Origin: Escherichia coli
Lineage (GTDB): Bacteria; Pseudomonadota; Gammaproteobacteria; Enterobacterales; Enterobacteriaceae
Length of the DNA: 64,000 nt
Direction: 5' to 3' (one strand)
Assembly (NCBI GenBank): GCA_902500005.1
Contig: GCA_902500005.1_3678.1
The notes beneath the pieces were generated by a model. That model was not told where the DNA came from, ran no database searches, and was given only the letters and a program-made list of their open reading frames with translations. A program made the translations under genes and the position numbers. Below are positions 14,655 to 63,987 of this stretch, in pieces; within the stretch, counting starts at the first letter, position 1, and every line of letters begins with the position of its first letter.

Positions 14655-14666
14655 TCAGGAGATAAA

Positions 14667-15707
14667 ATGTCAAAACCTAGTTTTCCATTAGAGATTTGGG
14701 CAGAGGAGGATCAGGTTCTGCCTAACACCCACAGACAGAACAGGCTACGCCCGATTGATGATTTGTGGAGAAAAGGTTGGGATCTTGGTCAAAAGCCCTC
14801 ATGTGAAGAACTTAACTATATTTTCAATATGCTCGGGACTTGGGCAAAATACATTGCTGACGAGCAGATCCCAGCTCAAGAAGGCCGTTATCTGGTACGT
14901 GATAATAACTTGAGCGATCTTTTGAACATTCCTGTTGCCCGTAGAAACCTTGGGATTATCACTAAGGAAGAGGCAGACGCCAGGTATGTAAAAGTTACAG
15001 GTGATACAATGACAGGCCCCTTGGGGTTGCAACGTATCAACTTTAAAGCTGCCGAGACAGATAAGGCTTGGATAGAGACAACTATTGGCCCAGATAAGAC
15101 AACCCTCGACTTTGGGTTAAGTGATAATACCGGGTCGTTTGATGATGGTGGTACATCTACAGTAGATGCGTTTCGTTGGAGATTCCAGCCAACTCAGCCG
15201 GATATTAATCCAGAGTTCACTTTGATGTACCTTAACGCGATCACGGCTAATCGTGCGCTGTTGAAAGTGGTAGGCAATGTTGAAGTTGTCGATAACATGA
15301 GGTGCAATAACCTTACTATCAGCAATACAGCAACATTCACCAACTGTAATGTGGCCAGTCAGTTGACGGCTGGGTCAGTATATGTTAATGGTGGTGCAAG
15401 TTGTGACAGTATGGTTGTAAGAAGCCAGCACTGTGTTGTCGGTAACAGAAATGTGGTGCGCTCCGTGAATGGAGTGACGGCTAACGGTAACGGTGATGTA
15501 ACGATCACTATCCCGCAGACAGGTGTGCAAGACATCAGAATCGGTGCAAGACTTGTGGACGGCGTTTCTGAATCTCCAATCCGCAACGGCTACGTTGTCA
15601 CAGGCTGGCATTTCGGTGACAAAAAAGAGATGCGTGGTTCAACCTACTGGGCAGGACCTTTACAAAAACTTGTAAATGGTCAATGGATCACTGTTAATTA
15701 TGCATAG
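14667..15707 (+). CDS. tail fibre protein, paralog A (346 aa)
   Basis: Paralogous to 16722..17765 along its length; C-terminal …QKLVNGQWITVNYA shared. Confidence 0.6.
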   Translation: MSKPSFPLEIWAEEDQVLPNTHRQNRLRPIDDLWRKGWDLGQKPSCEELNYIFNMLGTWAKYIADEQIPAQEGRYLVRDNNLSDLLNIPVARRNLGIITKEEADARYVKVTGDTMTGPLGLQRINFKAAETDKAWIETTIGPDKTTLDFGLSDNTGSFDDGGTSTVDAFRWRFQPTQPDINPEFTLMYLNAITANRALLKVVGNVEVVDNMRCNNLTISNTATFTNCNVASQLTAGSVYVNGGASCDSMVVRSQHCVVGNRNVVRSVNGVTANGNGDVTITIPQTGVQDIRIGARLVDGVSESPIRNGYVVTGWHFGDKKEMRGSTYWAGPLQKLVNGQWITVNYA

Positions 15708-25734: not shown

Positions 25735-26142
25735 TCAGTCCTCGCATTTAACAAATTTTTCTATAGATCCACCAAGCACAGCTTGTTGTTTGATGGCACT
25801 TTCTTCATCATAGTGGATAGACTTATGTTCCGTACCTCCAAACTTACCTGTGTGGAAGGTGTGCACCCAAATCTCTTTAGGAAGGGATTTATTCTCTTCC
25901 TCCACCAACTCCCACATACCCCACAAGTGATCTGTGATATCTCTGATGAAATATCCCTCGCCGAGGTTTGTATTCACACTGTAAGCTGATTCGTGATCTC
26001 CGCAAATATAACGGAAGGCAGTGTACTCTTTACCTGGTGTGAAGTGAGTATCCATTAGTATGGCTGTTAAAGAATAAGGGTCTCGAAAGCCCAAGAACTT
26101 TAGTTTAACAATTTCGACATTTACATCTGCAAGATTATCCAT
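25735..26142 (-). CDS. hypothetical protein (135 aa)
   Basis: Track start 26199 is TTG; in-frame ATG at 26142 preceded by GAGGAG. Confidence 0.4.
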   Translation of the reverse strand: MDNLADVNVEIVKLKFLGFRDPYSLTAILMDTHFTPGKEYTAFRYICGDHESAYSVNTNLGEGYFIRDITDHLWGMWELVEEENKSLPKEIWVHTFHTGKFGGTEHKSIHYDEESAIKQQAVLGGSIEKFVKCED

Positions 26143-26303
26143 GACGATCTCCTCTGTTTGGTTGGTGAGAATTATATATAGATCTGGTGGTGGTGTCAAG
26201 CTTAATTTTAAGAGATCTGAGAGGGTATTTTATTCAGGAAGGCAATCGCACAGGGTGGAGAAATTTATGAAGGCACAGGCCTCGTTTGAGGCCTTAAATT
26301 CTA

Positions 26304-26684
26304 TTATGACACTTTGACATAGCGCTCTGACAAAGCTGGGAAGCCAAAAGTAGTGCCTATACTACCATAGGCTATCCACCATTGGAGTTCATCGTGACAC
26401 CATTTTCCGATCAGGAAGGTGCTGGGATAGCGGGTCAGTATTTTGGCATAAGCTTTAGGATCTGCATCTTCTGGGATAATGATGCTTGGAATATCTTTGT
26501 TATGACCACAGCAGCAGTTTAGCGTTTTCAAACCTGCTGCCCACAAACTCATGATAGGCTTAGCCATACACTTATCAAGGCACACACGTTTTTTGCCGTC
26601 ACGAAGATTTTTAGGCACATCAACGATAACATTTGGATGCTTGGCACCTTTCACTTTCCAATTATAGGATTTACACTTGCACAT
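26304..26684 (-). CDS. Cys-rich hypothetical protein (126 aa)
   Basis: ATG with GGAG RBS; CKCK…CLDKC…CCCGH cysteine clusters. Confidence 0.4.
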   Translation of the reverse strand: MCKCKSYNWKVKGAKHPNVIVDVPKNLRDGKKRVCLDKCMAKPIMSLWAAGLKTLNCCCGHNKDIPSIIIPEDADPKAYAKILTRYPSTFLIGKWCHDELQWWIAYGSIGTTFGFPALSERYVKVS

Positions 26685-26910
26685 TTAATCAGTCTCCGTC
26701 TAGAAAGCCGCACTATACGTTTTTGAGGTATACTTTACTTAAAGTCTTTATCACCTGCCACGATTGCATGAATCCACTCATTGTGATGCTCAATAGCGGT
26801 GAGATGTAACATGATGTAGTGATCGTCATTGCCAAACATGATATGATAGGCTTTGGCAGCATTTTGATATAACTTCCACATCAGGTAATGATATCTTCGC
26901 CTCATGGCTC

Positions 26911-27381
26911 TTACTCCGGTTCAGGATCTGGGTAATCTTCAATAATAAAGGGCCATCCGTTCCGCTTAGCCTCAGACTTATACTCAATCTCCTTCATTGC
27001 AAACTCTAACTGATTCTTAGCCGGAATACATGCCGGAGAATCATCAATCCAGATATCTGGGTAGATATCAAACTGCGCCAGGTAGGCTGCCTTCTGAACA
27101 CCACCTGTGTAGAACACACCAACATCGAGCTCCTTGCGCCAATACTCAATGTCTACATTGTCTTGAGTAATGAATCGGAAAGTCACAAGGTAGACTGTCC
27201 ACCCCTCCTTCTTCAGATCCCTGATCAGGCTGGAGAAGATGAAAGGGCTCGCATTAAACGTTCCATCAAAGTCGATGGCAATGATGTGCGTGCCGTGGCG
27301 AGTCTCATATGGATTGCTCGTGGTAAGATTGCTGTAATTAAAAGGGACTTCTTCCCCGCAGTAGCTGTAGTCCATATTCAC
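26911..27381 (-). CDS. HAD-superfamily phosphatase (possible nucleotidase / 3'-phosphatase)
   Basis: HAD motif I HIIAIDFDGTF near N-terminus; GTG start overlapping upstream stop (alternative ATG at 27375). Confidence 0.55.
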   Translation of the reverse strand: MNMDYSYCGEEVPFNYSNLTTSNPYETRHGTHIIAIDFDGTFNASPFIFSSLIRDLKKEGWTVYLVTFRFITQDNVDIEYWRKELDVGVFYTGGVQKAAYLAQFDIYPDIWIDDSPACIPAKNQLEFAMKEIEYKSEAKRNGWPFIIEDYPDPEPE

Positions 27382-27653
27382 ACCTTCTCGTTGATAAATT
27401 TACGGGCGGTTTGGTGAGTTGTTTCTGCTGTCTTCAGAATGATATTAATTTTATCGTCAAGATCATTCATCTCGGCAGTTAATTCAGGAATCTCTCCGGC
27501 ATGCATGGTGAAATCATACATAGACATGCCCAAGATCTCATTGATGCGGCGGTTGCATTCTGCAGCACGCTGGTTCATTTTCCAAGCTAACACCAAAGCC
27601 TCCTGCGTAGCCTCTAGTGCAAAATCTAATACGTCGGCCTCTTCTTTCGTCAT
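27378..27653 (-). CDS. hypothetical protein (91 aa)
   Basis: ATG with AGGAGAG RBS. Confidence 0.4.
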   Translation of the reverse strand: MTKEEADVLDFALEATQEALVLAWKMNQRAAECNRRINEILGMSMYDFTMHAGEIPELTAEMNDLDDKINIILKTAETTHQTARKFINEKV

Positions 27654-27710
27654 CTTAGTCTCTCCTGTTGTATTGTTGGTAGGTGTATGAATACCTTATA
27701 ACTCACCTTT

Positions 27711-28277
27711 TTATTCAAACTGCAATAGTAAGTCCACCACCGCGCTAGGTCTGTCAACAAATTCCCCAGGTCCACATGCCCACAGAGGGTATCCGTCTAC
27801 ATACCGCCAAATCCAACCTGCAGTGTGGAGTTCGAGCAGGGCAGTACCGTCCTTACTGTCAACCACTCTTTCCCACAGTGTCGGGCAGCGAAGCTTGAGG
27901 ATCGGATCCCCTCCCTTATACCCATCCATGTAGATACCCATTGCAAAGTTCAGCATCATCTTTTTGTGCACTGATCTTTTACTGAGGGTACTCATCACTT
28001 CCTCTTTGTGAATGTTTGTAAGCTTCTCCTTGGCTACCCGCAGATCGTTGCAACCATTGTTCAGCAGATCTTCCAGACACTTGATCCGAAGGTCGTGAAT
28101 GTCTTTGTCGTGTACCGTTGGCACAGGGTCGTAGCGGTATAGCACTGTTGATACAAGGTTGCTCGGGTGTGGGTCTGACAGCAACCCATAACCCCAATAC
28201 TCTTCTGTATCTGAAAGGACAAGACACCCAATGTCTCTGTCAAGCTTTCCTGTGTTGTAAGCCACATTGACCGCCAT
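27711..28277 (-). CDS. hypothetical protein (188 aa)
   Basis: ATG with GGAG RBS. Confidence 0.4.
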   Translation of the reverse strand: MAVNVAYNTGKLDRDIGCLVLSDTEEYWGYGLLSDPHPSNLVSTVLYRYDPVPTVHDKDIHDLRIKCLEDLLNNGCNDLRVAKEKLTNIHKEEVMSTLSKRSVHKKMMLNFAMGIYMDGYKGGDPILKLRCPTLWERVVDSKDGTALLELHTAGWIWRYVDGYPLWACGPGEFVDRPSAVVDLLLQFE

Positions 28278-28279
28278 GA

Positions 28280-28525
28280 CTATAGCTCCACTAGCAAAGT
28301 GCTTTCAAAGTGCCGTTCATGCAAACCGTTGTAAGGGACCACTTCTACAACGCCATCACGGACATATGGGGCCATCATGGTGGTATAATCTCCAAACGGG
28401 TTGGTATTGTCACTAACCACAACCACCTTCTGCCCTTCCTTGGCAGAGTGCCAAATAGATCTGCACTTCATCAGGTGTTCGAGAGCTCCAGGTAAAATTT
28501 TGTTACGTTCTTTACGGGTCTTCAT
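28280..28525 (-). CDS. hypothetical protein (81 aa)
   Basis: ATG overlapping upstream stop (ATGA). Confidence 0.35.
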   Translation of the reverse strand: MKTRKERNKILPGALEHLMKCRSIWHSAKEGQKVVVVSDNTNPFGDYTTMMAPYVRDGVVEVVPYNGLHERHFESTLLVEL

Positions 28526-28971
28526 AACAGATATAGCTCCTTATGAAAGTGGTCTTTTAATTTCTCACTGAGAAACTTCTTGATACCTTCCTCTAAAGTG
28601 TTTTCGATGTAGTCCAGCTTAACTGCTTCGATGGACATATCATAGATTGCCAGCTCTAAGCTGTCAAGTCCCATCATAGCATGAACCATAAGATTTTCAT
28701 CTTCAGATACATTCAGGGGACTTCCTATAACATCTGGAGGCAGAATAGTTTCCCAATTATTCTGGGTGGTAGTTCTCCCGCCATCTACTTTACGGCGCAG
28801 TTCGAATGTGTTCTTAGTGTAGAACACTTCATAAGAAACGATACGACTGTCACTCTCATAATAAACGAAGTTCAGGTAGGAGCCTAGCCGCAGTCGGCAA
28901 ACTTCCACCCCAAACCATTGTTTCTTATAAGAATTCAGGCTAATGCTGTCGCATTCACGTTTGCTCAACAC
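28522..28971 (-). CDS. hypothetical protein (149 aa)
   Basis: GTG start 6 nt after AAGGAG. Confidence 0.4.
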   Translation of the reverse strand: MLSKRECDSISLNSYKKQWFGVEVCRLRLGSYLNFVYYESDSRIVSYEVFYTKNTFELRRKVDGGRTTTQNNWETILPPDVIGSPLNVSEDENLMVHAMMGLDSLELAIYDMSIEAVKLDYIENTLEEGIKKFLSEKLKDHFHKELYLL

Positions 28972-28987
28972 GGCTATCTCCTTTTTG

Positions 28988-29221
28988 TTAATCTTCGTAA
29001 ATCAGGATTTCTGCTTTAGGTTTTCGTGCTTTCAGGTCCAGCTCTATCCAGTGCACCATAGCTGTTTCAAGAAAAACAGCTTGGATGCATCCGTCCTCAG
29101 CGTGCCCCACCAACATAACGAGATCTTCACCTTCGTCATCTGCATCACGAACATAAAGAATCTCTCCAGATTCGAAGTCTTTCACAACCTGATTGCTAGA
29201 TAATTTTCTAATTTTTGCCAT
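28988..29221 (-). CDS. small paralog family member 4 (77 aa)
   Basis: Fourth gene of tandem, translationally coupled array; shares G(E/T)(I/V)… and acidic patches with the other three. Confidence 0.45.
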   Translation of the reverse strand: MAKIRKLSSNQVVKDFESGEILYVRDADDEGEDLVMLVGHAEDGCIQAVFLETAMVHWIELDLKARKPKAEILIYED

Positions 29222-29222
29222 A

Positions 29223-29486
29223 TCAGAAACCCTCTAAAAAGCTCTTGTAGAAAACAATCTCAGTATCCACACCAGTCACAATCTTGTCGTTCCTGATTTC
29301 ATCGGTAAGATAGGTGTCAAAACGCAGAACCTGTGTGGTGTTGTCACACATCCACTCAGCTGTGACCATTGCGAAAATCTTAGCATCTTCATTATCTGGT
29401 GTGAATGTTACCACCTCACCGCACTTAAACTTTTCGATAGGCTGAGTGTTAGCTTTCGGTTCTGCGATAGTGATTTTTGTGGTCAT
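29223..29486 (-). CDS. small paralog family member 3 (87 aa)
   Basis: …KCGEVVTF… / …VTGVDTEIVF… align with members 1 and 2. Confidence 0.5.
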   Translation of the reverse strand: MTTKITIAEPKANTQPIEKFKCGEVVTFTPDNEDAKIFAMVTAEWMCDNTTQVLRFDTYLTDEIRNDKIVTGVDTEIVFYKSFLEGF

Positions 29487-29749
29487 TATTCTCCTCCTTC
29501 TTTTGAATAGCTTGTCTCTCCAAGGATGGTAATTTTGGTGTCAAGCTCTGTAACTTTCATGTTTGGCGGCAGATCGTACAACTCATTATTTTCTAAATCG
29601 AACCCCCACACACAATGTTCTCCTGTTTTGACAATCATAACTATGTTTTGAATGCCGTCTCCGTCGCAACTTACCACGGTCCCACACGGAAAACTGTCTG
29701 CACGCTTTTTGTTCTTCACCTTAGAATTGAATACAATGCTGGTAGCCAT
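29486..29749 (-). CDS. small paralog family member 2 (87 aa)
   Basis: MAT…K.KK…GTVV…IVK…FDL…LP…VTELD..ITILGE shared with member 1. Confidence 0.5.
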   Translation of the reverse strand: MATSIVFNSKVKNKKRADSFPCGTVVSCDGDGIQNIVMIVKTGEHCVWGFDLENNELYDLPPNMKVTELDTKITILGETSYSKEGGE

Positions 29750-30012
29750 TATTGTTCCTCCACCATAACTTCGCCAAGAATTTCTATGCAGGCATCCATT
29801 TCTGTAACAACCAAACTGTGAGGTAGTTCTACAAACACCTTTCTGAACAGATCAAATACCCCAACATATATGTTTGCAGGATGTGATTTTACAACAAGTG
29901 CTGTATTCACATCCCCAAGTTCATCAACAAACATCACCACAGTGCCTGGAGCTACTGAGGACAGATACTTCTTAGTTTTACGGTTTGATGCAAATTTTAA
30001 CTCTGTTGCCAT
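29749..30012 (-). CDS. small paralog family member 1 (87 aa)
   Basis: ATG after GAGGAGG; same length and motifs as member 2. Confidence 0.5.
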   Translation of the reverse strand: MATELKFASNRKTKKYLSSVAPGTVVMFVDELGDVNTALVVKSHPANIYVGVFDLFRKVFVELPHSLVVTEMDACIEILGEVMVEEQ

Positions 30013-30027
30013 AAATAACCTCCTCTC

Positions 30028-31488
30028 TTACTTAGCGTACTCGATTAATTCCACAGTTTTCCCAAAGCTCGGGATATAATTTTTATTATACCCCTCAGTG
30101 AGGACCCATAGAGTATCGTACTTTTTCCACTTGTTGTCAACAACCTTTTGTTCAAAGTTATGCTCAAAGTATAGGTCGGTCAGGACGATGACATCTTTTG
30201 CATTAGGTATGTTGGCATCCAGATACTCGAACACGCAAGCAGCTGTTGTGCCCCATGTTGAGTGGACCTCATAGTTGATCATCTCATCTATGTTACCGCG
30301 AGTGTATACTTTAACCTCTCCAACCTCAGTTGACCAACAGAACATTGTAACCTTAAACTCTTTATACAGATTGCACAATCCGGTGATTTCATTGAACATT
30401 TTCTTTAAAGTTCTTTGAGAGATCGAGCCAGAAACGTCTAAAGCTACAACAATATCTATGGTGTTTTCCGGATTACGACCAGGAACAATAACGTGCTGGT
30501 TCTTGTTTATAGCCCCAACTTTTCGCATTGTGCTGGTCAAAGACCCAGATCGGCGACCAGGTTTTCTGTAGGTCAGTTCAGCCTTTCGTTTAGACAACAT
30601 GCGTTGCTTAATGATGTCTATATAGTTGATTACAGGCTTACCCCTGTTCTTGACAAACTCACGCACCGCCTCAGGGCAACGACCTCCGGAAGCTTGCATT
30701 GCTGCCTCCAGCATATCACCAGAGTCCTGCATGGCCTGATCTTTATCAGATTGACTGATTACAGGTTGTGGCTGATCATACCCCATAGCCTTTCCAAGAT
30801 TATCACTGGTGCCACCGTTCCCACTCATGTGATCATCGGTTTGTCGCTTATCACTTTGAGAGTTCTCACCTTTACCGTTCTTACTTTTACCGTTATTCTG
30901 ATCTCTTTGCTTATCAAGAACTGCATAAACGTTCTCAGCAATCCATCCATGAAACTTCATGTCGCAGTAGCAGCTGGCTAAGAAGCCAAAAGGCTTACCT
31001 TTCATGAACGTAGTGCTTTTCCCCTTCGGGAAGAAAACACAAGGAGGTTTGCTAAAGTCAACCACAAGGCCTGTGTTGATAACGTGATCACAAGCAATAT
31101 TGAACAGTTCCGGCTCAAAGCTTTTACCACGGACTAGGTGATCACAGATAATATGCCCCACCTCATGTGACAGAAGGAAGGCCACCTCTTTCACAGATTT
31201 TGGGGAATAGAAAACTTCAGCCATCTCAAACTGCTCGTCAGTTAGAGAAGCCTTAAGAATAGCCTTGCGCTCATCAGCCAATCCCATAATGAACTCAGGA
31301 CTGTAATAGATGCGTTTATGGTCGGTTGCCATGGTGGAGCACCATGTGTGGTTTTCTACGAACTGCAACCCTGACAGTAGTGTGCCATAAAACGGCAGCT
31401 TTTCAAGGAGATACATACGTGCAGCCTGCAACATTCTCAGGGCATCATCTTTTTGTGAGGCAATGATTTCTGAACTTCTGCTATCCAT
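30028..31488 (-). CDS. metallopeptidase-domain + von Willebrand A domain protein (DUF2201-like)
   Basis: HExxH motif (SHEVGHIICDH) in N-terminal half; vWA MIDAS motif (VVALDVSGS) in C-terminal half; ATG at 31488 after GGAG (track start is TTG). Confidence 0.65.
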   Translation of the reverse strand: MDSRSSEIIASQKDDALRMLQAARMYLLEKLPFYGTLLSGLQFVENHTWCSTMATDHKRIYYSPEFIMGLADERKAILKASLTDEQFEMAEVFYSPKSVKEVAFLLSHEVGHIICDHLVRGKSFEPELFNIACDHVINTGLVVDFSKPPCVFFPKGKSTTFMKGKPFGFLASCYCDMKFHGWIAENVYAVLDKQRDQNNGKSKNGKGENSQSDKRQTDDHMSGNGGTSDNLGKAMGYDQPQPVISQSDKDQAMQDSGDMLEAAMQASGGRCPEAVREFVKNRGKPVINYIDIIKQRMLSKRKAELTYRKPGRRSGSLTSTMRKVGAINKNQHVIVPGRNPENTIDIVVALDVSGSISQRTLKKMFNEITGLCNLYKEFKVTMFCWSTEVGEVKVYTRGNIDEMINYEVHSTWGTTAACVFEYLDANIPNAKDVIVLTDLYFEHNFEQKVVDNKWKKYDTLWVLTEGYNKNYIPSFGKTVELIEYAK

Positions 31489-31521
31489 TAAAACTCCAGA
31501 AGGGGCCAATGGCCCCTGTCA

Positions 31522-32562
31522 TTATTTAACGTGTTTGAAAATACCTGCCAACTCGGTCATTGTCATGCGGGTGGTCTTCATAAGATCTGTCATAGCTTTC
31601 TCCATAATTGGAGATACTACCATAAAGTTTCCTTTAGTGAAACCTTTATTCCAGTCGGTCACCAACAGGGGTTTAAGTCCAGCTCCAAGACGTTCACCAG
31701 TTAAAGCACAGCATTTGCGAATATACGAACTCTTAAATTGGCTGAACGACAGATCAACTTTCATACCTACATCGTAGAACGTTTGGCAATAGAAAGTGTA
31801 AGCTTTGGCAATCTCAACATCATCAGGTAGTGCAGGAACCTCTTCTGTAAGCTCCTCTTCGACCCCTTGAGTCTCTTTTTCCTCTTCATGCACCTGTTGC
31901 GTCATTTCTTCAATCTCTTCTGTGATAGGCTCGTTTACAATGTCGGAAATGTGCTTCTTGGGTGCACGATAAGTAACTTTAGACATCGGTAGCATATCTT
32001 CCTCCTCTTCTTCGTCAAAGAGTGCTAGTTTATCCTCTTCCGTTCCATATTGCAAGATGAAATCTTCAAAAGTATAATCACCTTTCAATTTCTCCATACG
32101 CTCTTCGCTCAGGTGGAGCATCATCTGCTGGACAATTTTTCGATCAGTTTCGTCTTTAATCAAGACTGCAGTCTTTTTATCTACCAGACAGTCCTTTAGA
32201 GAGTTGCATCTCAATCCCACCACACAACAGTTATCAACCGCATAAGGACCTTCATCATCTATCCGCTCCAGAGATGGGTAGAAAGGATTCCCCAGCCCGT
32301 TTTCATCTGTGTGCATGTCAAAAGGTATAAGGGTATAGTCGCATACTCCATCTCCTAAAAGTTTTTTACCAAATAGGAGGTATTCTTCCCATGACAGGTC
32401 GAACTCTATATCTCGTTTCCGTGCGTTATTCTGTTTGCGTCTATATTTTTTGAGCAAGCGCTCTAACTCTTCTGGTGTATAATATTTTTCAAGATTCATG
32501 AGTCGTCTCTCGTGCTCTGTAAGTGAAGAAATCGTATCAATTGTCTCAACAGATGTCAACAT
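31522..32562 (-). CDS. HNH-like (His-Me finger) domain protein with acidic linker (347 aa)
   Basis: …PSLERIDDEGPYAVDNCCVVGLRCNSLK resembles HNH endonuclease signature (from memory); poly-Glu linker; internal Met preceded by GAGGAGG. Confidence 0.45.
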   Translation of the reverse strand: MLTSVETIDTISSLTEHERRLMNLEKYYTPEELERLLKKYRRKQNNARKRDIEFDLSWEEYLLFGKKLLGDGVCDYTLIPFDMHTDENGLGNPFYPSLERIDDEGPYAVDNCCVVGLRCNSLKDCLVDKKTAVLIKDETDRKIVQQMMLHLSEERMEKLKGDYTFEDFILQYGTEEDKLALFDEEEEEDMLPMSKVTYRAPKKHISDIVNEPITEEIEEMTQQVHEEEKETQGVEEELTEEVPALPDDVEIAKAYTFYCQTFYDVGMKVDLSFSQFKSSYIRKCCALTGERLGAGLKPLLVTDWNKGFTKGNFMVVSPIMEKAMTDLMKTTRMTMTELAGIFKHVK

Positions 32563-58574: not shown

Positions 58575-58599
58575 TACTTGAAAATTCCTGGCATATCAA

Positions 58600-59110
58600 G
58601 TATAAGGGGGATTTCTAAAATGGATTTCCTCCTTTTGATATTTCACCGGGCTGGATATTTTAAAATTCTTAGAAAATCAGAAAATGGATCGAAAACTAAA
58701 ATGGATTTTTCAGAGTAGGCGCGACAAGCTGAATAACTCATCCTATCGTTTGCACCATATTCCAGACCACCATTATAGATTTCCCACACATGCTAACCTC
58801 CCTCTACTAGAACTTCCTCCACTTACCCTTGACCTTCTATGGTAACAATCTAACCACTATCTTGAAGTTGCGGTGCAGCTTTCCAGGTACTCGATCTACT
58901 TTTCATTTCAGGGCTTGGATTTTCTGAAAATTTTTCTCGATAAATTTCTCAGTACTCGATCTGTTTTTCGTTTTCTGAATCGGATTTTCTGGAAATCGTT
59001 CCGGATCTCGACCTGAAATTTTTGGGGACGAAATCTATTTTTCGTTTTCAGAAATGGATTTTTAAAATTTCTATATGGGAATATTTTATGGGGCACTGTT
59101 TTATAGGAAA
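58600..59110. repeat. ORF-poor AT-rich region with iteron-like direct repeats
   Basis: ~22-nt unit tactcgatct(a/g)ttttc(a/g)ttt at 58888 and 58953 (related copy 59030); 15-nt unit ggattttctg(a/g)aaat at 58917 and 58982; (a)aaatggat variants at 58617, 58681, 58697, 59052. Confidence 0.55.
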
Positions 59111-59206
59111 TTGTTACGGAGGGTAATTAGCATGCTAATTAAATTTATTAAATGCGAGGGATTCTTATTTAGAATTTTGAATGATAATTATTCTCGTTTG
59201 CAGAAT

Positions 59207-59386
59207 AACGGGCAGGCCCGGTGATTGTCTCCCGGCCCCTGCTGCCCCGGCTTGTTATTATAGTATCACACAGGACAAAGAAGGCAAGGATTTTTTGCAT
59301 AAATTTTTAAATGATAATGATAACCGTTCTCATTTTATGAAGCGCCCATCCCCGGTGGTTGTCTCCCCCGTCACCGGTGCCTGCCG
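59207..59386. repeat. GC-rich repeat elements (two direct copies); inverted copy at 63888-63931
   Basis: ggcaggcccggtgattgtctccc (59207) and ccggtggttgtctcccccgtcaccggtgcctgcc (59350); reverse complement at 63890-63931. Confidence 0.5.
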
Positions 59387-59539
59387 TCCTTTCGATAGGT
59401 ATATTATGCCGCCTGGCGGGGCCGCTGTCAACACTTTTCAAAAAATTTTTCTAACCTGATGCGCTAACCGTTGCAACCTGGCGGGGCCAGCCTGGCAGGT
59501 CCGCACTATAAAGTAAACAGCTACAGAAGAGGTACAAAA

Positions 59540-59713
59540 ATGAAAGGTAATGCTACTCGCCTGGGAAATGTAGTGATTAATGATACGGAAGCTATCGCCC
59601 TGGTTGAAAAGGTTATGGCGGGAGCGTTGGAACATAAAGAAGAGTACGAAAAAATGGTGGTTAACCTGGCGGGGGCGGCAGGTGGATTCTATCATAAAAA
59701 TAATTTAAAATAG
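59540..59713 (+). CDS. hypothetical protein (57 aa)
   Basis: ATG after AGAAGAGG; track start 59471 lies in repeat region. Confidence 0.35.
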   Translation: MKGNATRLGNVVINDTEAIALVEKVMAGALEHKEEYEKMVVNLAGAAGGFYHKNNLK

Positions 59714-59716
59714 TCG

Positions 59717-59744
59717 TTGACAACAAGGTTAATCATGGTATTAT
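59717..59744 (+). promoter_or_regulatory. sigma70-like promoter
   Basis: TTGACA-16 nt-TATTAT. Confidence 0.5.
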
Positions 59745-59794
59745 TACCCTACAAGGTGAACAACACCGCACTAACCAGTAAAGAGGATAAATTT

Positions 59795-59992
59795 ATGAAC
59801 GCATACGGGATCAAAGTACGTCGCAACACTCGCCAGGTGGTCACCAATCAAGTGATTTGCCGGGTGGATGTAACCATCAACAACGGGCAAGGCCTTTATA
59901 AATTTCGTCGCGGTCATAGCTATACCCTGCAACAGCTTAATCGTTGCGCCCTGACAAAAGGTCAGATCAACCACTGGTTTAATAAAAAATAA
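59795..59992 (+). CDS. hypothetical protein (65 aa)
   Basis: ATG after AAGAGGA; track start 59717 is TTG of the -35 element. Confidence 0.4.
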   Translation: MNAYGIKVRRNTRQVVTNQVICRVDVTINNGQGLYKFRRGHSYTLQQLNRCALTKGQINHWFNKK

Positions 59993-59995
59993 GTA

Positions 59996-60024
59996 TTGAC
60001 ATACAGTCCGACACCAAATACACT
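59996..60024 (+). promoter_or_regulatory. sigma70-like promoter
   Basis: TTGACA-17 nt-TACACT. Confidence 0.5.
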
Positions 60025-60056
60025 AAAAGCACAAAAGACACTAAGAGGATAAAATC

Positions 60057-60455
60057 ATGAAAACCACTACCTTTAATTTTGATAATGCAGACTTTTCTTT
60101 TTCTGATGTCAAGAACTGCCGCCGTGATCGTGGATTTTACAAGGCTTATAATCTGGTGGGCCTGGACGATGACAATAATTTGCACGAAGTAGCTGAGATC
60201 CGGTATTATGCCGCCGCCAGCGGGAACACTCACTACTGCGTGTTTTGGATTCACGACAACAAGAACAATAAGTACGGTTATACTGGCGGCAAGGCGAGCG
60301 GTCACGGTTACGATAAAGCTAACGCAGCACTTGAGAGCGCATTAAATGCTATGGGGATCACTGCCGACGGCTGGATCTACGAAGAAGAGTTTTTGTCGGC
60401 ACTTGCTGACCACCTGGGCTATAAAAAACACATTGTAACATGCGCCCACGAATAA
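60057..60455 (+). CDS. hypothetical protein (132 aa)
   Basis: ATG after AAGAGGA. Confidence 0.45.
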   Translation: MKTTTFNFDNADFSFSDVKNCRRDRGFYKAYNLVGLDDDNNLHEVAEIRYYAAASGNTHYCVFWIHDNKNNKYGYTGGKASGHGYDKANAALESALNAMGITADGWIYEEEFLSALADHLGYKKHIVTCAHE

Positions 60456-60461
60456 AAATCA

Positions 60462-60489
60462 TTGACACGCTGCAAAATTTAAGTAAACT
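60462..60489 (+). promoter_or_regulatory. sigma70-like promoter
   Basis: TTGACA-16 nt-TAAACT; followed by leader hairpin ggcgggaatgtttcccgcc. Confidence 0.5.
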
Positions 60490-60537
60490 AGACACAAAAG
60501 GCGGGAATGTTTCCCGCCAGCACAAAGGAAAAAGATC

Positions 60538-60933
60538 ATGAATAAGAACGTACGCCGCATCATGAACGAACTGGCAAACGATGAAAAAATTATTGATATG
60601 CATTTGGTCAACATTTGCCGCCGTTGTGTAACATATAACAACCGCGCCGCAAAAGCGCGTGAGATGAACGCAAAAGGCACCTTAAAGCCCTTTCAGGTGG
60701 TTGTAAAATCTATAACTAGCGCAGCAGGCCAGGCGCAGGACCACAACAACGAGAGCGCTAATATTGATCCGTCTTACGTAATGAAACGGATCCGGACTTG
60801 CAAGAATAAAGAGCAGGTATATAACGTCATAGATTGGCTGGACTCCCTGGGCGATGTGGTTTACAATAGGTTTTCTGCAGCTATCGAGATCCAGCTTGAC
60901 AGATTGGACGGGAAAGTACTAAAAACTTATTGA
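60538..60933 (+). CDS. hypothetical protein (131 aa)
   Basis: ATG after AAGGAAAAAG. Confidence 0.45.
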   Translation: MNKNVRRIMNELANDEKIIDMHLVNICRRCVTYNNRAAKAREMNAKGTLKPFQVVVKSITSAAGQAQDHNNESANIDPSYVMKRIRTCKNKEQVYNVIDWLDSLGDVVYNRFSAAIEIQLDRLDGKVLKTY

Positions 60934-60951
60934 GTTTATTTTTAGATGGCC

Positions 60952-60981
60952 TTGACACCAGGGCCATCAATAAAGTAAACT
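60952..60981 (+). promoter_or_regulatory. sigma70-like promoter inside a palindrome (copy 1 of a 45-bp direct repeat)
   Basis: ATGGCC-TTGACACCAG-GGCCAT; -10 TAAACT; 45-bp repeat 60936-60980 = 61557-61601. Confidence 0.5.
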
Positions 60982-61013
60982 AACCACAGTTGAGCGGAAA
61001 AGGAGGCTTAAAG

Positions 61014-61133
61014 ATGAGCACTACACGCCAGCACACAAAGGTAACCATCATCGTTTGCATCATTGGGTACATCCTGGCGCAAATGTTGATGGGTAGCGCC
61101 AACGGTGTCGCAAAATTTTTCTTAAACTTTTAA
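61014..61133 (+). CDS. small hydrophobic protein (39 aa)
   Basis: ATG 7 nt after AAGGAGG; not in ORF track (below its size cutoff); predicted TM segment. Confidence 0.3.
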   Translation: MSTTRQHTKVTIIVCIIGYILAQMLMGSANGVAKFFLNF

Positions 61134-61161
61134 TTGACAAGCTAACTTAAATCGATATAAT
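61134..61161 (+). promoter_or_regulatory. sigma70-like promoter (consensus)
   Basis: TTGACA-16 nt-TATAAT. Confidence 0.55.
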
Positions 61162-61212
61162 AAGCACATAAACGGGAAAACTTCCCAGAACACACAAAAG
61201 GAGAAAAACACC

Positions 61213-61554
61213 ATGACTACTATGACCGCCTCAGAAAAAGCTATGCAGATCGCTGAACTGAAAAAACAGATCGCAGACCTTGAGAATAAGATCGATAACT
61301 TTGAAATCGACGAGGACAAGTACGACGAAAACTATGATGAATGGTTAGACGAGATCTACGGCGAAATTATGATCGGAAACATTTCTTTTCTTCCGTCGCG
61401 TATCCTCAAGGAGCTAGATCCTATCGCTTACCGCTGCGGATTTAGCGACTACATCGACAGCCTGGATATTGAGGACGATGAAGAATACCAGGAATTACAG
61501 ACAGAGTTAGAAGAAGCAAAAGAAGAGCTTGCGGAGCTGGAAGAAAACGAGTAA
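61213..61554 (+). CDS. highly acidic coiled-coil protein (113 aa)
   Basis: ATG after AAGGAG; Asp/Glu-rich (…DEDKYDENYDEWLDEIYGE…DIEDDEEYQELQTELEEAKEELAELEENE). Confidence 0.45.
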   Translation: MTTMTASEKAMQIAELKKQIADLENKIDNFEIDEDKYDENYDEWLDEIYGEIMIGNISFLPSRILKELDPIAYRCGFSDYIDSLDIEDDEEYQELQTELEEAKEELAELEENE

Positions 61555-61572
61555 GCTTATTTTTAGATGGCC

Positions 61573-61602
61573 TTGACACCAGGGCCATCAATAAAGTAAA
61601 CT
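61573..61602 (+). promoter_or_regulatory. sigma70-like promoter inside a palindrome (copy 2 of the 45-bp direct repeat)
   Basis: Identical to 60936-60980 element. Confidence 0.5.
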
Positions 61603-61643
61603 TTATACTGTTAACACTGAACTAATGCATAGGAGTTAAAACC

Positions 61644-61889
61644 ATGGCAGCACTAATCACCAAATATTATGCCCCTACCAACACCAAAAGCGCCCGTATC
61701 ATGGTAAAAGGCTTCGGACGTAAAAAGGTGTACACCTGGGATTATGCCTTAGACACGGAAGACAACTACACCAACGCAATGACCGATTTTATTAATGAAC
61801 TAAATAAGCAGATCTTGACAAGTTATAAAGTGACCGATATTGCTTATATAGGTGAAGGCGGGATCTGTTTTGTAGGCATTGTGAAATAG
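61644..61889 (+). CDS. hypothetical protein (81 aa)
   Basis: ATG after TAGGAG. Confidence 0.45.
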   Translation: MAALITKYYAPTNTKSARIMVKGFGRKKVYTWDYALDTEDNYTNAMTDFINELNKQILTSYKVTDIAYIGEGGICFVGIVK

Positions 61890-61963
61890 TTATTTTTTCG
61901 GTGGTCCTGGTTGCAGGGCCATCTATAAAGATAATTTATTAACACCATGAAAGGAGAAAGTAC

Positions 61964-62317
61964 ATGATCAGCGGGGCAAGTTTTATTATTGGCGCTATTG
62001 CTACGGCTTTAATTGTAAATAAGATCCAGGATAAAAAGGAAAGAGGAAGTACCGCCCTTGCAGAATATCCATTTTGGGCATTCAACGATAACGAAGATTA
62101 TATTATAAAGTATAAAAATAAAGAAGGTGACCAAGTAACACCGCGACCGATCCCGGCTTACAAAATGCAGGAAACACTATACCGCCTGGAGGCGGGGGGC
62201 GCAAAAATTGTAGACTTTTGGGGATACGACCACACAGATCAGGAAGTTATAAAGCGCCGTATCCGGGCTATTCAGGCCAATATTGAAGTTAGCAAGGGGG
62301 GAATATATGAAAATTAA
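61964..62317 (+). CDS. hypothetical protein with N-terminal TM segment (117 aa)
   Basis: ATG after AAAGGAGAAAG. Confidence 0.45.
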   Translation: MISGASFIIGAIATALIVNKIQDKKERGSTALAEYPFWAFNDNEDYIIKYKNKEGDQVTPRPIPAYKMQETLYRLEAGGAKIVDFWGYDHTDQEVIKRRIRAIQANIEVSKGGIYEN

Positions 62318-62504
62318 TTTCGAGAAAATTGTAAAGCGCCCTCATGATTCCGAAGAGCTGCCAGAACGCCGCCAGCGTAACAATAAACTGAATAAGCCAA
62401 AAAGGTTTGGGAAGATCTGGCGTAATCATTATGATCGTAAATTGCCCGGCCTACTTTTGGAACGTGAACGACAGGCAGAACGATACCGCCATAAAGACAA
62501 ATAA
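62307..62504 (+). CDS. basic hypothetical protein (65 aa)
   Basis: ATG after AAGGGGGG (track start 62283 is further upstream). Confidence 0.35.
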   Translation: MKINFEKIVKRPHDSEELPERRQRNNKLNKPKRFGKIWRNHYDRKLPGLLLERERQAERYRHKDK

Positions 62505-62510
62505 CAACCA

Positions 62511-62540
62511 ACGCCCCGCCATTGTGCGGGGCTTTTTATT
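62511..62540 (+). terminator. rho-independent terminator
   Basis: gccccgccattgtgcggggc + tttttatttc. Confidence 0.6.
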
Positions 62541-62661
62541 TCTATCCTACGAATAGCGCCCCTGGTTGGCCCTGTAAGCGCCAAAAAGGCCCCCACCTAT
62601 GCAATCGCCCCTTTAACCTGAAAACATCGCCCAGGGCCGTTTCATGGCGTTAAAAATATCA

Positions 62662-62689
62662 TTGACATCGTCAACAGGTTAGCTATACT
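62662..62689 (+). promoter_or_regulatory. sigma70-like promoter
   Basis: TTGACA-16 nt-TATACT. Confidence 0.5.
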
Positions 62690-62721
62690 AACCACATCAA
62701 AGAGAGAAAGGAGTAAACGCC

Positions 62722-62982
62722 ATGCGTAAATTAAAAAATTTTGATAAAGTTGATGTTATCCTGAATAATTTTTACTACTGCAACAACAAGGCTATTTGGT
62801 GGCGTGATAGTTCCACCGATAAAGTCAGGGCGCGCTTTCTTCAGGGGCACTGGCAAGGCCGCCCAGTGATTAAAATCATGGGGCAATTGGTAGCGTTTAA
62901 AAATTGCCGCCGTGTTGATGACGTTGAGGAGATTTTAAACATTTTGCGCCACAATAATTTAAAAAATAGTGTTGACAAGTAA
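62722..62982 (+). CDS. hypothetical protein (86 aa)
   Basis: ATG after AAAGGAG. Confidence 0.45.
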   Translation: MRKLKNFDKVDVILNNFYYCNNKAIWWRDSSTDKVRARFLQGHWQGRPVIKIMGQLVAFKNCRRVDDVEEILNILRHNNLKNSVDK

Positions 62983-62999
62983 GCCTCAATAAGTATACT
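62972..62999 (+). promoter_or_regulatory. sigma70-like promoter
   Basis: TTGACA-16 nt-TATACT; followed by leader hairpin ggcgggaaaacttcccgcc. Confidence 0.5.
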
Positions 63000-63056
63000 T
63001 AAACACACAGGCGGGAAAACTTCCCGCCACTAACAAAGAAAATAGGAGAAAATATC

Positions 63057-63194
63057 ATGACCACCGTTAACATTACCGCAGGTTACAATTTATCTTTCGA
63101 CGTGCTGACCGACGAACAAAAAGAAAAAGCCGTTGAAATGGTCCGCGAAAGAGAAGAACACAGCGGGGATAACTTTTTTGCAGAAAGAGGATAG
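63057..63194 (+). CDS. small acidic protein (45 aa)
   Basis: ATG after TAGGAG; not in ORF track (below its size cutoff). Confidence 0.3.
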   Translation: MTTVNITAGYNLSFDVLTDEQKEKAVEMVREREEHSGDNFFAERG

Positions 63195-63199
63195 ACACA

Positions 63200-63484
63200 A
63201 TGAAAAAGATGATCGCAGTAGTTGCCCTGGTTGTTGGACTTAATGCGCCTGTAATGGCTAAAGAGCTGGCAAAAGAGGTTGATCTAACGGATATCCATGC
63301 CGTCAATCAAATCGGGGTTACTTATCGCTTATGCCTTGCCGCTAAAACTTTTAATGACGGTACAACAGAGTACTACGGATTCGAGGGTATCCGGTGCGGT
63401 GAGCTTGCTCGCGACCTTAAGGAAGATCCAGACCTGGAGGATCTACCCATAACCGTGAACGGTAAAGCTTACGTTAACCGTTAA
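63200..63484 (+). CDS. secreted small protein with signal peptide (94 aa)
   Basis: MKKMIAVVALVVGLNAPVMA-KE: Sec-type signal with AxA-like site. Confidence 0.45.
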   Translation: MKKMIAVVALVVGLNAPVMAKELAKEVDLTDIHAVNQIGVTYRLCLAAKTFNDGTTEYYGFEGIRCGELARDLKEDPDLEDLPITVNGKAYVNR

Positions 63485-63633
63485 CCGTGAAAAAGATAAT
63501 CATTACCTTGGGGATTGTGGCGGGATCGCTGGCGCTCTTTCCCCTTATGGTTAGATATGTGCTGATCAGTATTGTCCTGGTGGTCAGTGATCTACTAGAA
63601 ACGGTTGGCACCTTGTTTTAAAGAGCGATAAAA

Positions 63634-63825
63634 ATGAATGTTGAACAAGTTAGAAAGGTATTGGCGGTACTGCGTTATCATAATCATAGAAAGGTCATAG
63701 ACGATCCTGATTATGTTGATTCAAGTCTGGAAGAGGATACACTACAAGCCATAAGTAACATGCAAGAATTGCTAAAGCGCATGACAGAGAAAAACCGACC
63801 GGACTACATAGGCGAAAAAATATAA
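63634..63825 (+). CDS. hypothetical protein (63 aa)
   Basis: ATG start. Confidence 0.4.
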   Translation: MNVEQVRKVLAVLRYHNHRKVIDDPDYVDSSLEEDTLQAISNMQELLKRMTEKNRPDYIGEKI

Positions 63826-63841
63826 TCCTTATTAACTAGAA

Positions 63842-63872
63842 AACAGGGCTTGCAATGGTCCTGTTTTTTGTT
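63842..63872 (+). terminator. rho-independent terminator
   Basis: acagggcttgcaatggtcctgt + tttttg. Confidence 0.5.
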
Positions 63873-63887
63873 ATACTTATTACACGG

Positions 63888-63931
63888 CAGGCACCTGGCG
63901 ACGGGGGGGGGGGAGACAATCACCGGGCCTG
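63888..63931. repeat. inverted copy of the 59.2-59.4 kb GC-rich element, containing a G11 homopolymer tract
   Basis: cggcaggcacctggcgacg-G11-agacaatcaccgggcctgcc is the reverse complement of the 59350/59207 elements; G-run 63903-63913. Confidence 0.5.
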
Positions 63932-63958
63932 CCTGTCATATAAGAACTATAAAAACCG

Positions 63959-63987
63959 TTGACATCTGCCAGGTGGTGGGGTAACAT
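63959..63987 (+). promoter_or_regulatory. sigma70-like promoter
   Basis: TTGACA-17 nt-TAACAT. Confidence 0.4.

Follow-up and report, generated by a model that had tools for sequence, protein, structure and literature searches.

A conserved element next to predicted early promoters of rV5-like phages, a candidate cis-regulatory signal

Several short cis signals that lie close to promoters are known as sites of processive antitermination or factor loading, among them nutL/nutR and qut of phage lambda, putL/putR of phage HK022, and the ops site of RfaH. Promoters can also prime replication, as at the primary origin of T7 (tandem phi1.1A/B), at the T4 middle promoters of oriF and oriG, with ColE1 RNA II, and at the G-tract of mitochondrial CSBII. 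A third arrangement, PeSL, in which a terminator stem-loop is joined to a strong sigma70 early promoter, is described for hyperplastic regions of small ORFans in T4-type phages in the available text of two papers (PMC2839356, PMC4122927). Here we analyze three GC-rich repeats at 59.2-63.9 kb of a 64,000-nucleotide (nt) stretch from an Escherichia coli assembly (GCA_902500005.1, contig GCA_902500005.1_3678.1), hereafter called the window. Judged from its sequence, the window is that of an rV5-like (Vequintavirus) coliphage: in BLAST comparisons, the region shares 98% identity with the Vequintavirus coliphages naswa, EmilHeitz, and Alma, and about 93-96% with many other phages of the rV5-like group. 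An earlier sequence-only reading had seen the repeats as bounding a mobile or invertible cassette, or as paired binding sites. The explanation that we favor, with even confidence for and against, is that all three represent a single conserved cis-regulatory signal, about 45-55 nt long, with which rV5-like phages equip a small class of their sigma70-type early promoters.

Anatomy and conservation of the element

The 17-nt core of the repeats, GGGAGACAAYCACCGGG, was found exactly three times in the 64 kb even when three mismatches were allowed, against 0.16 expected, and three matches were reached in none of 100 shuffles. Two of them are on the minus strand (59.2 and 59.35 kb) and one is on the plus strand (63.9 kb); a nucleotide profile built from many copies returned the same three and no further copy in the window. 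We call the right copy R and the left copies L1 and L2, the latter two forming a tandem direct pair, 134 nt apart (Table 1). Their spans are defined in the G-rich sense and are offset by 2-5 nt from those first reported. The inverted arrangement described in the sequence-only reading is real, as a repeat search gave arms of 35 nt at 59205-59239 and 63905-63939 (89% complementary) and of 31 nt at 59351-59381 and 63897-63927 (81% complementary).

The anatomy of the element was derived from 26 tabulated copies (24 unique). They consist of an invariant 15-mer, GGAGACAAWCACCGG, followed in fixed register by a GC-rich 10-mer and an A/T hexamer. Within the 10-mer, position 4 was T in 22 of the 26 copies, position 5 was G in 23, and position 9 was G in 22. 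The sequence then switches sharply from GC to AT, with T-A-T-W-Y-A at positions 11-16. The long-form copies (R and L2) have an extra upstream box, GGCACC(T/G)G.

R also contains the G11 tract that had been pointed out at 63903-63913, and correctly so: it is the sole homopolymer of more than 7 nt in the window, the next longest being one A7. The corresponding sequence is G6 in naswa and rV5, G5 in HdK5, GGGTGG in EmilHeitz and IMG150, and AGGTGG in an unrelated contig described below. In naswa, the closest relative, the element is identical apart from its G6. In BLAST, every listed relative has a span 4-6 nt shorter, and none of these spans fits G11. Tract length therefore differs between close relatives, which is one of the features of a contingency homopolymer. 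Because its length and purity vary without loss of the element, the G tract appears to behave as a tolerated spacer of variable length inside it. G11 itself is either a recent slippage expansion in this length-tolerant spacer or a homopolymer (poly-G) sequencing error.

Conservation extends well beyond the closest relatives. A 48-nt query over L2 was at least 99% identical in 88 phage records, while the L2 promoter's own -10 hexamer varied (CATAAT, CACAAT, CAAAAT); by this comparison of sequences, L2 is under strong purifying selection. For the right copy, about 186 phage records have an ortholog in the corresponding intergenic position. When IMG/VR was scanned with a pattern for the bipartite signal, all of the matches (11/11) fell in rV5-superfamily contigs (136-153 kb) and in one other contig, whereas about three would be expected by chance according to our own estimate. 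This pattern belongs to a more specific set that replaced a first scan with a 16-mer, which was dominated by a coincidental match in an unrelated prophage coding gene. When the left modules were searched with BLAST in 5,426 E. coli genomes, three marginal 36-nt matches were all that appeared, with no sign of an E. coli origin. The element is unannotated in the records inspected, and our literature search found no description of the motif, of the left gap in which L1 and L2 lie, or of the transcriptome of rV5-like phages.

The copies share no RNA fold. For eight right copies from different genera RNAalifold gave -6.9 kcal/mol, and for a diverse set of 13 left copies it gave -1.1 kcal/mol; the covariation terms were unfavorable in both cases (+0.44 and +0.3, respectively). 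Folds of single sequences were mostly unremarkable, and those of L2 (z = -0.6) and of the copies from phAPEC8 and the unrelated contig (z > 0) were no better than shuffles. A hairpin before UAUUCU is possible solely in L1-type and CR3-left copies (z = -2.8 for CR3 left). "Outer stems" seen by eye were dropped, being at differing positions in different lineages and missing from L2. The window and four related loci gave no match in Rfam 15 at gathering thresholds, and sensitive scans of both regions gave chance-level matches only. A terminator scan of the window reported no intrinsic terminator at the three elements. Because no conserved fold is supported, the signal is most simply read as a sequence in fixed register, not as a hairpin. 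Separately, the right copies of Certrevirus and of Klebsiella phage KP2025 contain the decamer ACCGRACCUG twice, about 35 nt apart (our loci L147:11100-11160, L125:12040-12100, and L149:11085-11125), and in KP2025 both decamers have the same G-to-A change.

Table 1. Coordinates of the element copies and associated features in the window
Feature	Position	Strand	Description
R, right copy, long form	63886-63942	+	GGCAGGCACCTGGCGAC-G11-AGACAATCACCGG-GCCTGCCTGT-CATATA
R, core	63912-63926	+	
R, GC-rich 10-mer	63927-63936	+	
R, A/T hexamer	63937-63942	+	
G11 homopolymer	63903-63913	+	Variable spacer between conserved GGCACCTGGCGAC box and GGAGACAA core
L2, left copy 2, long form	59336-59385	-	GGCAGGCACCGGTGACGGG-GGAGACAACCACCGG-GGATGGGCGC-TTCATA; core 59352-59366
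L1, left copy 1, short form	59202-59248	-	GGGGCAGCAGGGGCCG-GGAGACAATCACCGG-GCCTGCCCGT-TATTCT; core 59218-59232
P1 of R	63850-63877	+	TTGCAA-16-TATACT; -35 TTGCAA in loop of hairpin 63837-63870
Terminator-like hairpin and P1 composite, PeSL-like	63837-63877	+	From promoter and terminator scans
P2, second sigma70-like promoter, downstream of R	63959-63987	+	TTGACA-17-TAACAT; annotated P168 in rV5
P1 of L2	59403-59431	-	TTGACA-17-CATAAT, 11/12 match; fires leftward
P1 of L1 (predicted)	59257-59287	-	Perfect TATAAT 59262-59257, or TGaTACTAT with TTGCCT 16 nt upstream
Fur-box-like 19-mer	59313-59331	+	GATAATGATAACCGTTCTC, 16/19 to consensus; directly downstream of L2 in transcribed sense
Weaker Fur-like partner	~59178-59196		Beside L1
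AT-rich noncoding stretch	58600-59070		~65-nt repeats (58877-59062); at least six iteron-like AAATGGATTT motifs
Deletion junction	63180-63187	+	8-nt microhomology GCAGAAAG, from comparison with rV5

Promoter association and possible functions

About 1-12 nt separate the start of every copy in the window from the site where its own promoter, P1, is predicted to initiate, and copy and promoter point the same way. A co-oriented -10 hexamer lies 22-41 nt upstream of the core in 25 of the 26 tabulated copies (those with upstream flank available). A co-oriented upstream sigma70-like promoter was called by the scan for L2, R, both CR3 copies, and one copy of the unrelated contig, and this arrangement is also present at the left copies of DU_PP_I, CR3, SSBI34, and phAPEC8. 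The P1 of L1 was read from the sequence; it is kept in rV5, Alma, and isim and in two Vequintavirus-like contigs of IMG/VR (L066 and L108). The composite of terminator and promoter found before R also precedes the right copy of phAPEC8, DU_PP_I, CR3, SSBI34, and KP2025. By these predictions, transcripts from the left P1s would leave the ORFan block behind and run leftward into an AT-rich, iteron-like noncoding gap, and those from the right P1 would run rightward into the next operon. The copies appear inverted because of these opposite promoter directions, and the inverted look of the repeats is a by-product of them. The suggestion of paired binding sites survives in part: a nonpalindromic, invariant sequence without a fold is compatible with a binding site, but the copies fit the description of promoter-module parts better than that of a bracketing pair. 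Short coding sequences (CDSs) annotated over the elements, namely rV5 ORF198 (2225-2503) over the left copies and EmilHeitz bas49_0131 (L152, 189-278) over the right copy, are probably spurious.

We infer that a factor recognizes the signal, on the non-template DNA or in the emerging RNA, as polymerase reaches the GC-to-AT switch. Host RNA polymerase could itself be this factor, as could a host or phage protein associated with it; in either case the factor would set the fate of the P1 transcript (pause, termination, or read-through of a terminator), by analogy with nut, put, ops/RfaH, and Q-utilization sites. Like the nut, put, qut, and ops sites, the element is a short candidate cis signal just after predicted promoters, in opposite orientations for divergent early operons, with few copies per genome, and would be read one way; with transcription as predicted, its position and orientation fit a nut/put-type placement in every lineage. 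Unlike them, it has no boxA/boxB, no two-stem put-like fold, and no ops consensus, the resemblance to GGTAGCGTG being limited to one or two copies of the unrelated contig, and an N-, Q-, or RfaH-like partner is putative.

The likeness to PeSL concerns the P1 of R (63837-63877) and three 49-nt repeats inside the block (at 60933, 61554, and 61888). In contrast to PeSL, L1 and L2 have no hairpin or terminator upstream of P1, the phages that carry the element are not T4-type, and a conserved segment of 45-55 nt lies downstream of the promoter, whereas the available text of PMC2839356 and PMC4122927 mentions no extra conserved leader. With respect to the indel boundaries that characterize PeSL in the available text of PMC2839356, the sole indel mapped here, of about 4 kb relative to rV5, ends at GCAGAAAG inside a gene, not at the element. 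Compared at the level of sequence, the element lacks the defining sequence or structure features of the nut, put, qut, ops, and PeSL families, besides being outside Rfam and not described in the literature searched.

Several points weigh against control of P1 transcripts by such a signal. The transcription start sites and the transcribed strand are predictions, and the P1 of L1 is under the scan threshold (9/12). On the plus strand, a weak promoter-like sequence in the opposing direction, TTGAAT-N18-CAGAAT, can be read at the left copies of both Vequintavirus and Certrevirus, with a Fur-like box in its spacer, so that transcription through the C-rich sense is possible. In the unrelated contig some P1s consist of a -10 hexamer alone, and in three of its copies the A/T hexamer is not uniform (AATATG, AATCCA, AATGTG). 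Finally, the recognizing factor is putative, the analogy with nut, put, and ops is one of position only, and concerted action of the left and right copies is without support.

The palindromes near the left copies bear on a different explanation. The sequences directly downstream of L2 and beside L1 (Table 1) are Fur-box-like candidate sites by sequence. The Fur 19-mer gave two matches in the window within three mismatches, against 0.00 expected; the 19-bp consensus is GATAATGATAATCATTATC. A related palindrome, AATGAKAAYNRTTMTCATT, lies beside the left copies of rV5, Alma, isim, CR3, DU_PP_I, and contigs L066, L108, and L146, and occurs once in the phAPEC8 locus (L124), away from any copy; the phAPEC8 left copy is followed by diverged palindromes. 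In CR3 and phAPEC8 the recurrent unit TGAGAAT-N-ATTCTCA forms arrays and differs symmetrically from the Fur 7-1-7 unit TGATAAT-N-ATTATCA (12/14). Fur-like palindromes, single or in arrays, thus follow the left copies of Vequintavirus, Certrevirus, and Phapecoctavirus (L147:319-337; L160:~8960-9045). A further Fur-box-like palindrome was seen at 63489-63507.

These palindromes could be operators of a promoter formed by the element itself, the 15-mer being an activator or alternative-sigma site over the -35 region and the A/T hexamer the -10 box. P1 and the element would then be tandem promoters for different infection phases, like the early and middle promoters of T4. The 15-mer does contain GAGACA, 18 nt upstream of the hexamer, the spacing of 10 nt between core and T-A-T-W-Y-A hexamer is fixed, and at the left copies the operator-like boxes begin about 8 nt downstream of the hexamer. 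We nevertheless consider this explanation unlikely. Position 6 of the hexamer is mostly A (18/26) and not the T needed by sigma70, L2-type hexamers are shifted by 2 nt, the TATWYA hexamer is missing from three copies of the unrelated contig, and three copies in 64 kb are too few for a promoter class.

The destination of the left transcripts raises the question of replication. L1 and L2 are in a gap of about 1 kb (58575-59540) that has no annotation in most relatives either, and both of their P1s point into an AT-rich, repeat-rich noncoding stretch (58600-59070), which is nearly invariant among four Vequintaviruses and looks origin-like or control-region-like. The transcripts might prime or activate replication through a stable G-rich RNA:DNA hybrid (R-loop) in the iteron-like gap, with the right copy acting likewise in the other direction. 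As in the known transcription-primed origins, tandem promoters face an AT-rich region full of repeats, and a variable G tract lies in the non-template strand that would be transcribed early. This strand is G-rich right after the predicted start and then switches from GC to AT; analogous gaps with palindrome arrays are present in CR3 and phAPEC8. In contrast to these origins, however, GC skew shows no switch at 59-64 kb and gives no support for an origin, the G run is dispensable, and the element also precedes ordinary genes: the right copy of Vequintavirus leads within about 20 nt to another promoter and then to a gene, not to an AT-rich gap, and each of the at least seven copies in the unrelated contig precedes an ordinary gene. 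A role in priming is therefore distinctly unlikely in our view.

Further observations were made in the left gap and around it. A perfect 16-bp palindrome, AATTAGCATGCTAATT, at 59126-59141 is conserved or nearly so in Alma, isim, and rV5. In the IMG/VR Vequintavirus-like contigs L045 and L146, GAATGTTGTAACTAAA lies just upstream of the leftmost left-copy promoter, and the window contains a degenerate version of it only (~59445-59465). This sequence closely resembles the core of the E. coli Ter/Tus site.

It could also be imagined that the units make small trans-acting noncoding RNAs of about 50 nt, with the single-stranded 15-mer as a seed that pairs with host or phage RNA; a candidate target would be the C-rich complement in rightward transcripts crossing the left gap. 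Stand-alone units of promoter and element between a terminator and the next promoter would suit such RNAs, as would the hairpin followed by UAUUCU that L1-type and CR3-left copies can fold, and left copies would be complementary to right ones if the two were transcribed from opposite strands. Most copies, however, have no terminator hairpin, in agreement with the terminator scan, no other complementary site was found in the 64 kb with three mismatches, and there is no match in Rfam. BLAST, which is blind to short seed matches, found no similar sequence in E. coli genomes. We rate small RNAs as decidedly improbable.

Other resemblances were set aside by inspection, on account of misfits in spacing or sequence or of short strings present in some copies only. 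They were sigma54, sigmaE, sigma32, and sigma28 promoters and IHF and DnaA sites; CRISPR I-E/I-F repeats, starts like those of T7/SP6 promoters, the tRNA T-arm, and a small ORF from AUC; and the 16S rRNA 3' end, the rrn leader, the 23S sarcin-ricin loop, and 4.5S RNA.

The block between the copies

The idea of an invertible or mobile 4.5-kb cassette, for which the repeats would serve as recombination sites or as terminal repeats, has some basis, since arms of 35 nt, 89% complementary, flank a block of accessory ORFans whose length varies between phages from 4.6 to about 11 kb. This recalls invertible segments of the Gin/Cin/Hin type, insertion sequences (IS), and miniature inverted-repeat transposable elements (MITEs), in which inverted repeats of about 35 nt surround a few kb of accessory genes. 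In contrast to these systems, we found here no recombinase, no alternative orientation, no dyad-symmetric crossover site (the element is not palindromic), and no target-site duplication, as the outer flanks, GCAGAATAAC and TGTCATATAA, share no direct repeat by inspection. Ten ORFs of the block had no match to a recombinase, transposase, or nuclease in Pfam or PHROGs; the four that were not scanned are of 39-63 amino acids. BLAST showed collinearity over at least 80% of the query, left boundary included, for 91 records, and none of the 25 high-coverage relatives listed has an inversion at this boundary, most being collinear in one to three pieces.

The synteny of the repeats, which are ancient features, argues in the same direction. 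The layout with the left copy on the minus strand and the right copy on the plus strand is shared by Vequintavirus, Certrevirus, a Seunavirus-like Salmonella phage, and Phapecoctavirus (rV5, CR3, DU_PP_I, SSBI34, phAPEC8), that is, by at least four genera, and the element positions are syntenic in all relatives examined, with no presence/absence polymorphism. From 4.6 kb in the window, the distance between the copies increases over 7.9 kb (DU_PP_I), 8.7 kb (rV5), about 9.4 kb (Alma, naswa), and 10.6 kb (CR3) to about 11 kb (SSBI34), and the space between them is filled by variable ORFans (4.6-11 kb). According to annotation, the intervening genes are all on one strand in rV5, DU_PP_I, CR3, SSBI34, and KP2025. 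The block measures 4.6 kb here rather than about 9 kb because of an internal deletion of about 4 kb at a microhomology, unrelated to the repeats; what is missing extends from the start of the rV5 ORF185 homologue (in its interior) to the region upstream of ORF171 (ORF172). The element is also found in tandem (L1/L2) and as at least seven dispersed, co-oriented copies in the unrelated contig. We consequently regard a cassette as extremely improbable, and these inverted repeats should not be labeled as the ends of a mobile element in annotations. A 45-amino-acid ORF at 63057-63194 is the truncated start of the ORF185 homologue, which has 624 nt in relatives.

All genes at about 54-64 kb are on the plus strand. 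Those between the copies are small ORFans, with one T7 gene 1.1-like gene among them: the 65-amino-acid protein encoded at 62307-62504 matches the Pfam family Phage_1_1 (T7 gene 1.1 protein; E = 2.6e-11). In T7, gene 1.1 adjoins the primary origin. That the enclosed genes have promoters of their own, as was also proposed in the sequence-only reading, was borne out by the promoter scan, which returned about 10 high-scoring, sigma70-like, intergenic promoters on the plus strand at 59.7-63.96 kb; on both strands, 23 promoter sites were counted at 58-64 kb, against 11.9 ± 3.5 in shuffles. Several of the promoters of block genes are fused to the preceding terminator hairpin. For the first gene of the block (start at 59540), no sigma70-like promoter was called, and about 35-50 nt carried by relatives are missing from the window at ~59488-59540 (alignment columns 940-1000).

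The 49-nt direct repeats at 60933-60981, 61554-61602, and 61888-61936 (98% and 71% identical) each form a hairpin, the loop of which carries TTGACA, and a -10 hexamer comes next. They resemble PeSL-type terminator/promoter cassettes and could, by analogy with T4-type phages, mediate deletions or the formation of mini-circles. Conserved hairpins GGCGGGAA..TTCCCGCC (60500-60518, 61173-61187, and 63010-63028) lie between the promoter and the ribosome-binding site of several block genes; they are probably at mRNA 5' ends and are possibly stabilizers or processing sites. Elsewhere in the window, GC skew is negative solely at 26000-32000, which suggests a gene block on the opposite strand. In the rV5 locus, a stretch of 2.6 kb (12667-15272) has no annotated genes; two gene orientations converge there, a few genes to the right of the right copy, and neither a tRNA nor an Rfam match was found in it. 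No tRNA or tmRNA was found by the tRNA and tmRNA scans.

Copies in an unrelated large-phage contig

The other contig recovered from IMG/VR (IMGVR_UViG_3300027123_000194, 46.8 kb) contains at least seven copies of the element, each co-oriented with a downstream gene. They are laid out as a terminator, a -10 hexamer, CAAUACCUGARAACGGGGGAGACAAWCACC, about 80 nt, a full sigma70 promoter, and the gene. The contig had no BLAST match in the phage collection and no protein similarity by tblastn to the window or to six fetched loci of the rV5 superfamily, and its small ORFs had no PHROG matches. It encodes a tyrosyl-tRNA synthetase (TyrRS) fragment, a NADAR domain, an AAA ATPase, and a weak ART-like domain, and because of this gene set it is suggestive of a large or jumbo-type phage. 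One of its copies and the right copy of KP2025 are almost the same over a stretch of 35 nt.

The presence of the element in this contig points either to a shared reader on the host side or to horizontal spread of a regulatory cassette. In a stronger form of the first possibility, which we find rather unlikely, ACCUG-N(4-14)-GGAGACAAWCACCGG-GC-rich 10-mer-A/T (31-35 nt) would be a new class of polymerase-directed control signal, read by host RNA polymerase or a conserved host factor and not by a phage protein. This would explain how KP2025 and a jumbo-like metagenomic phage share it almost base for base without detectable protein similarity. If true, large lytic phages would mark a privileged set of early transcripts with such a signal.

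Transcription control is essentially unstudied in rV5-like phages (Vequintavirinae, Stephanstirmvirinae), which are common in collections for phage therapy and biocontrol. A strictly conserved, orientation-locked signal that accompanies two or three of the early promoters in a genome, and that recurs at least seven times in an unrelated large phage, offers a handle on the control of their early transcription, and it may also bear on the activation of the iteron-rich, origin-looking noncoding region.

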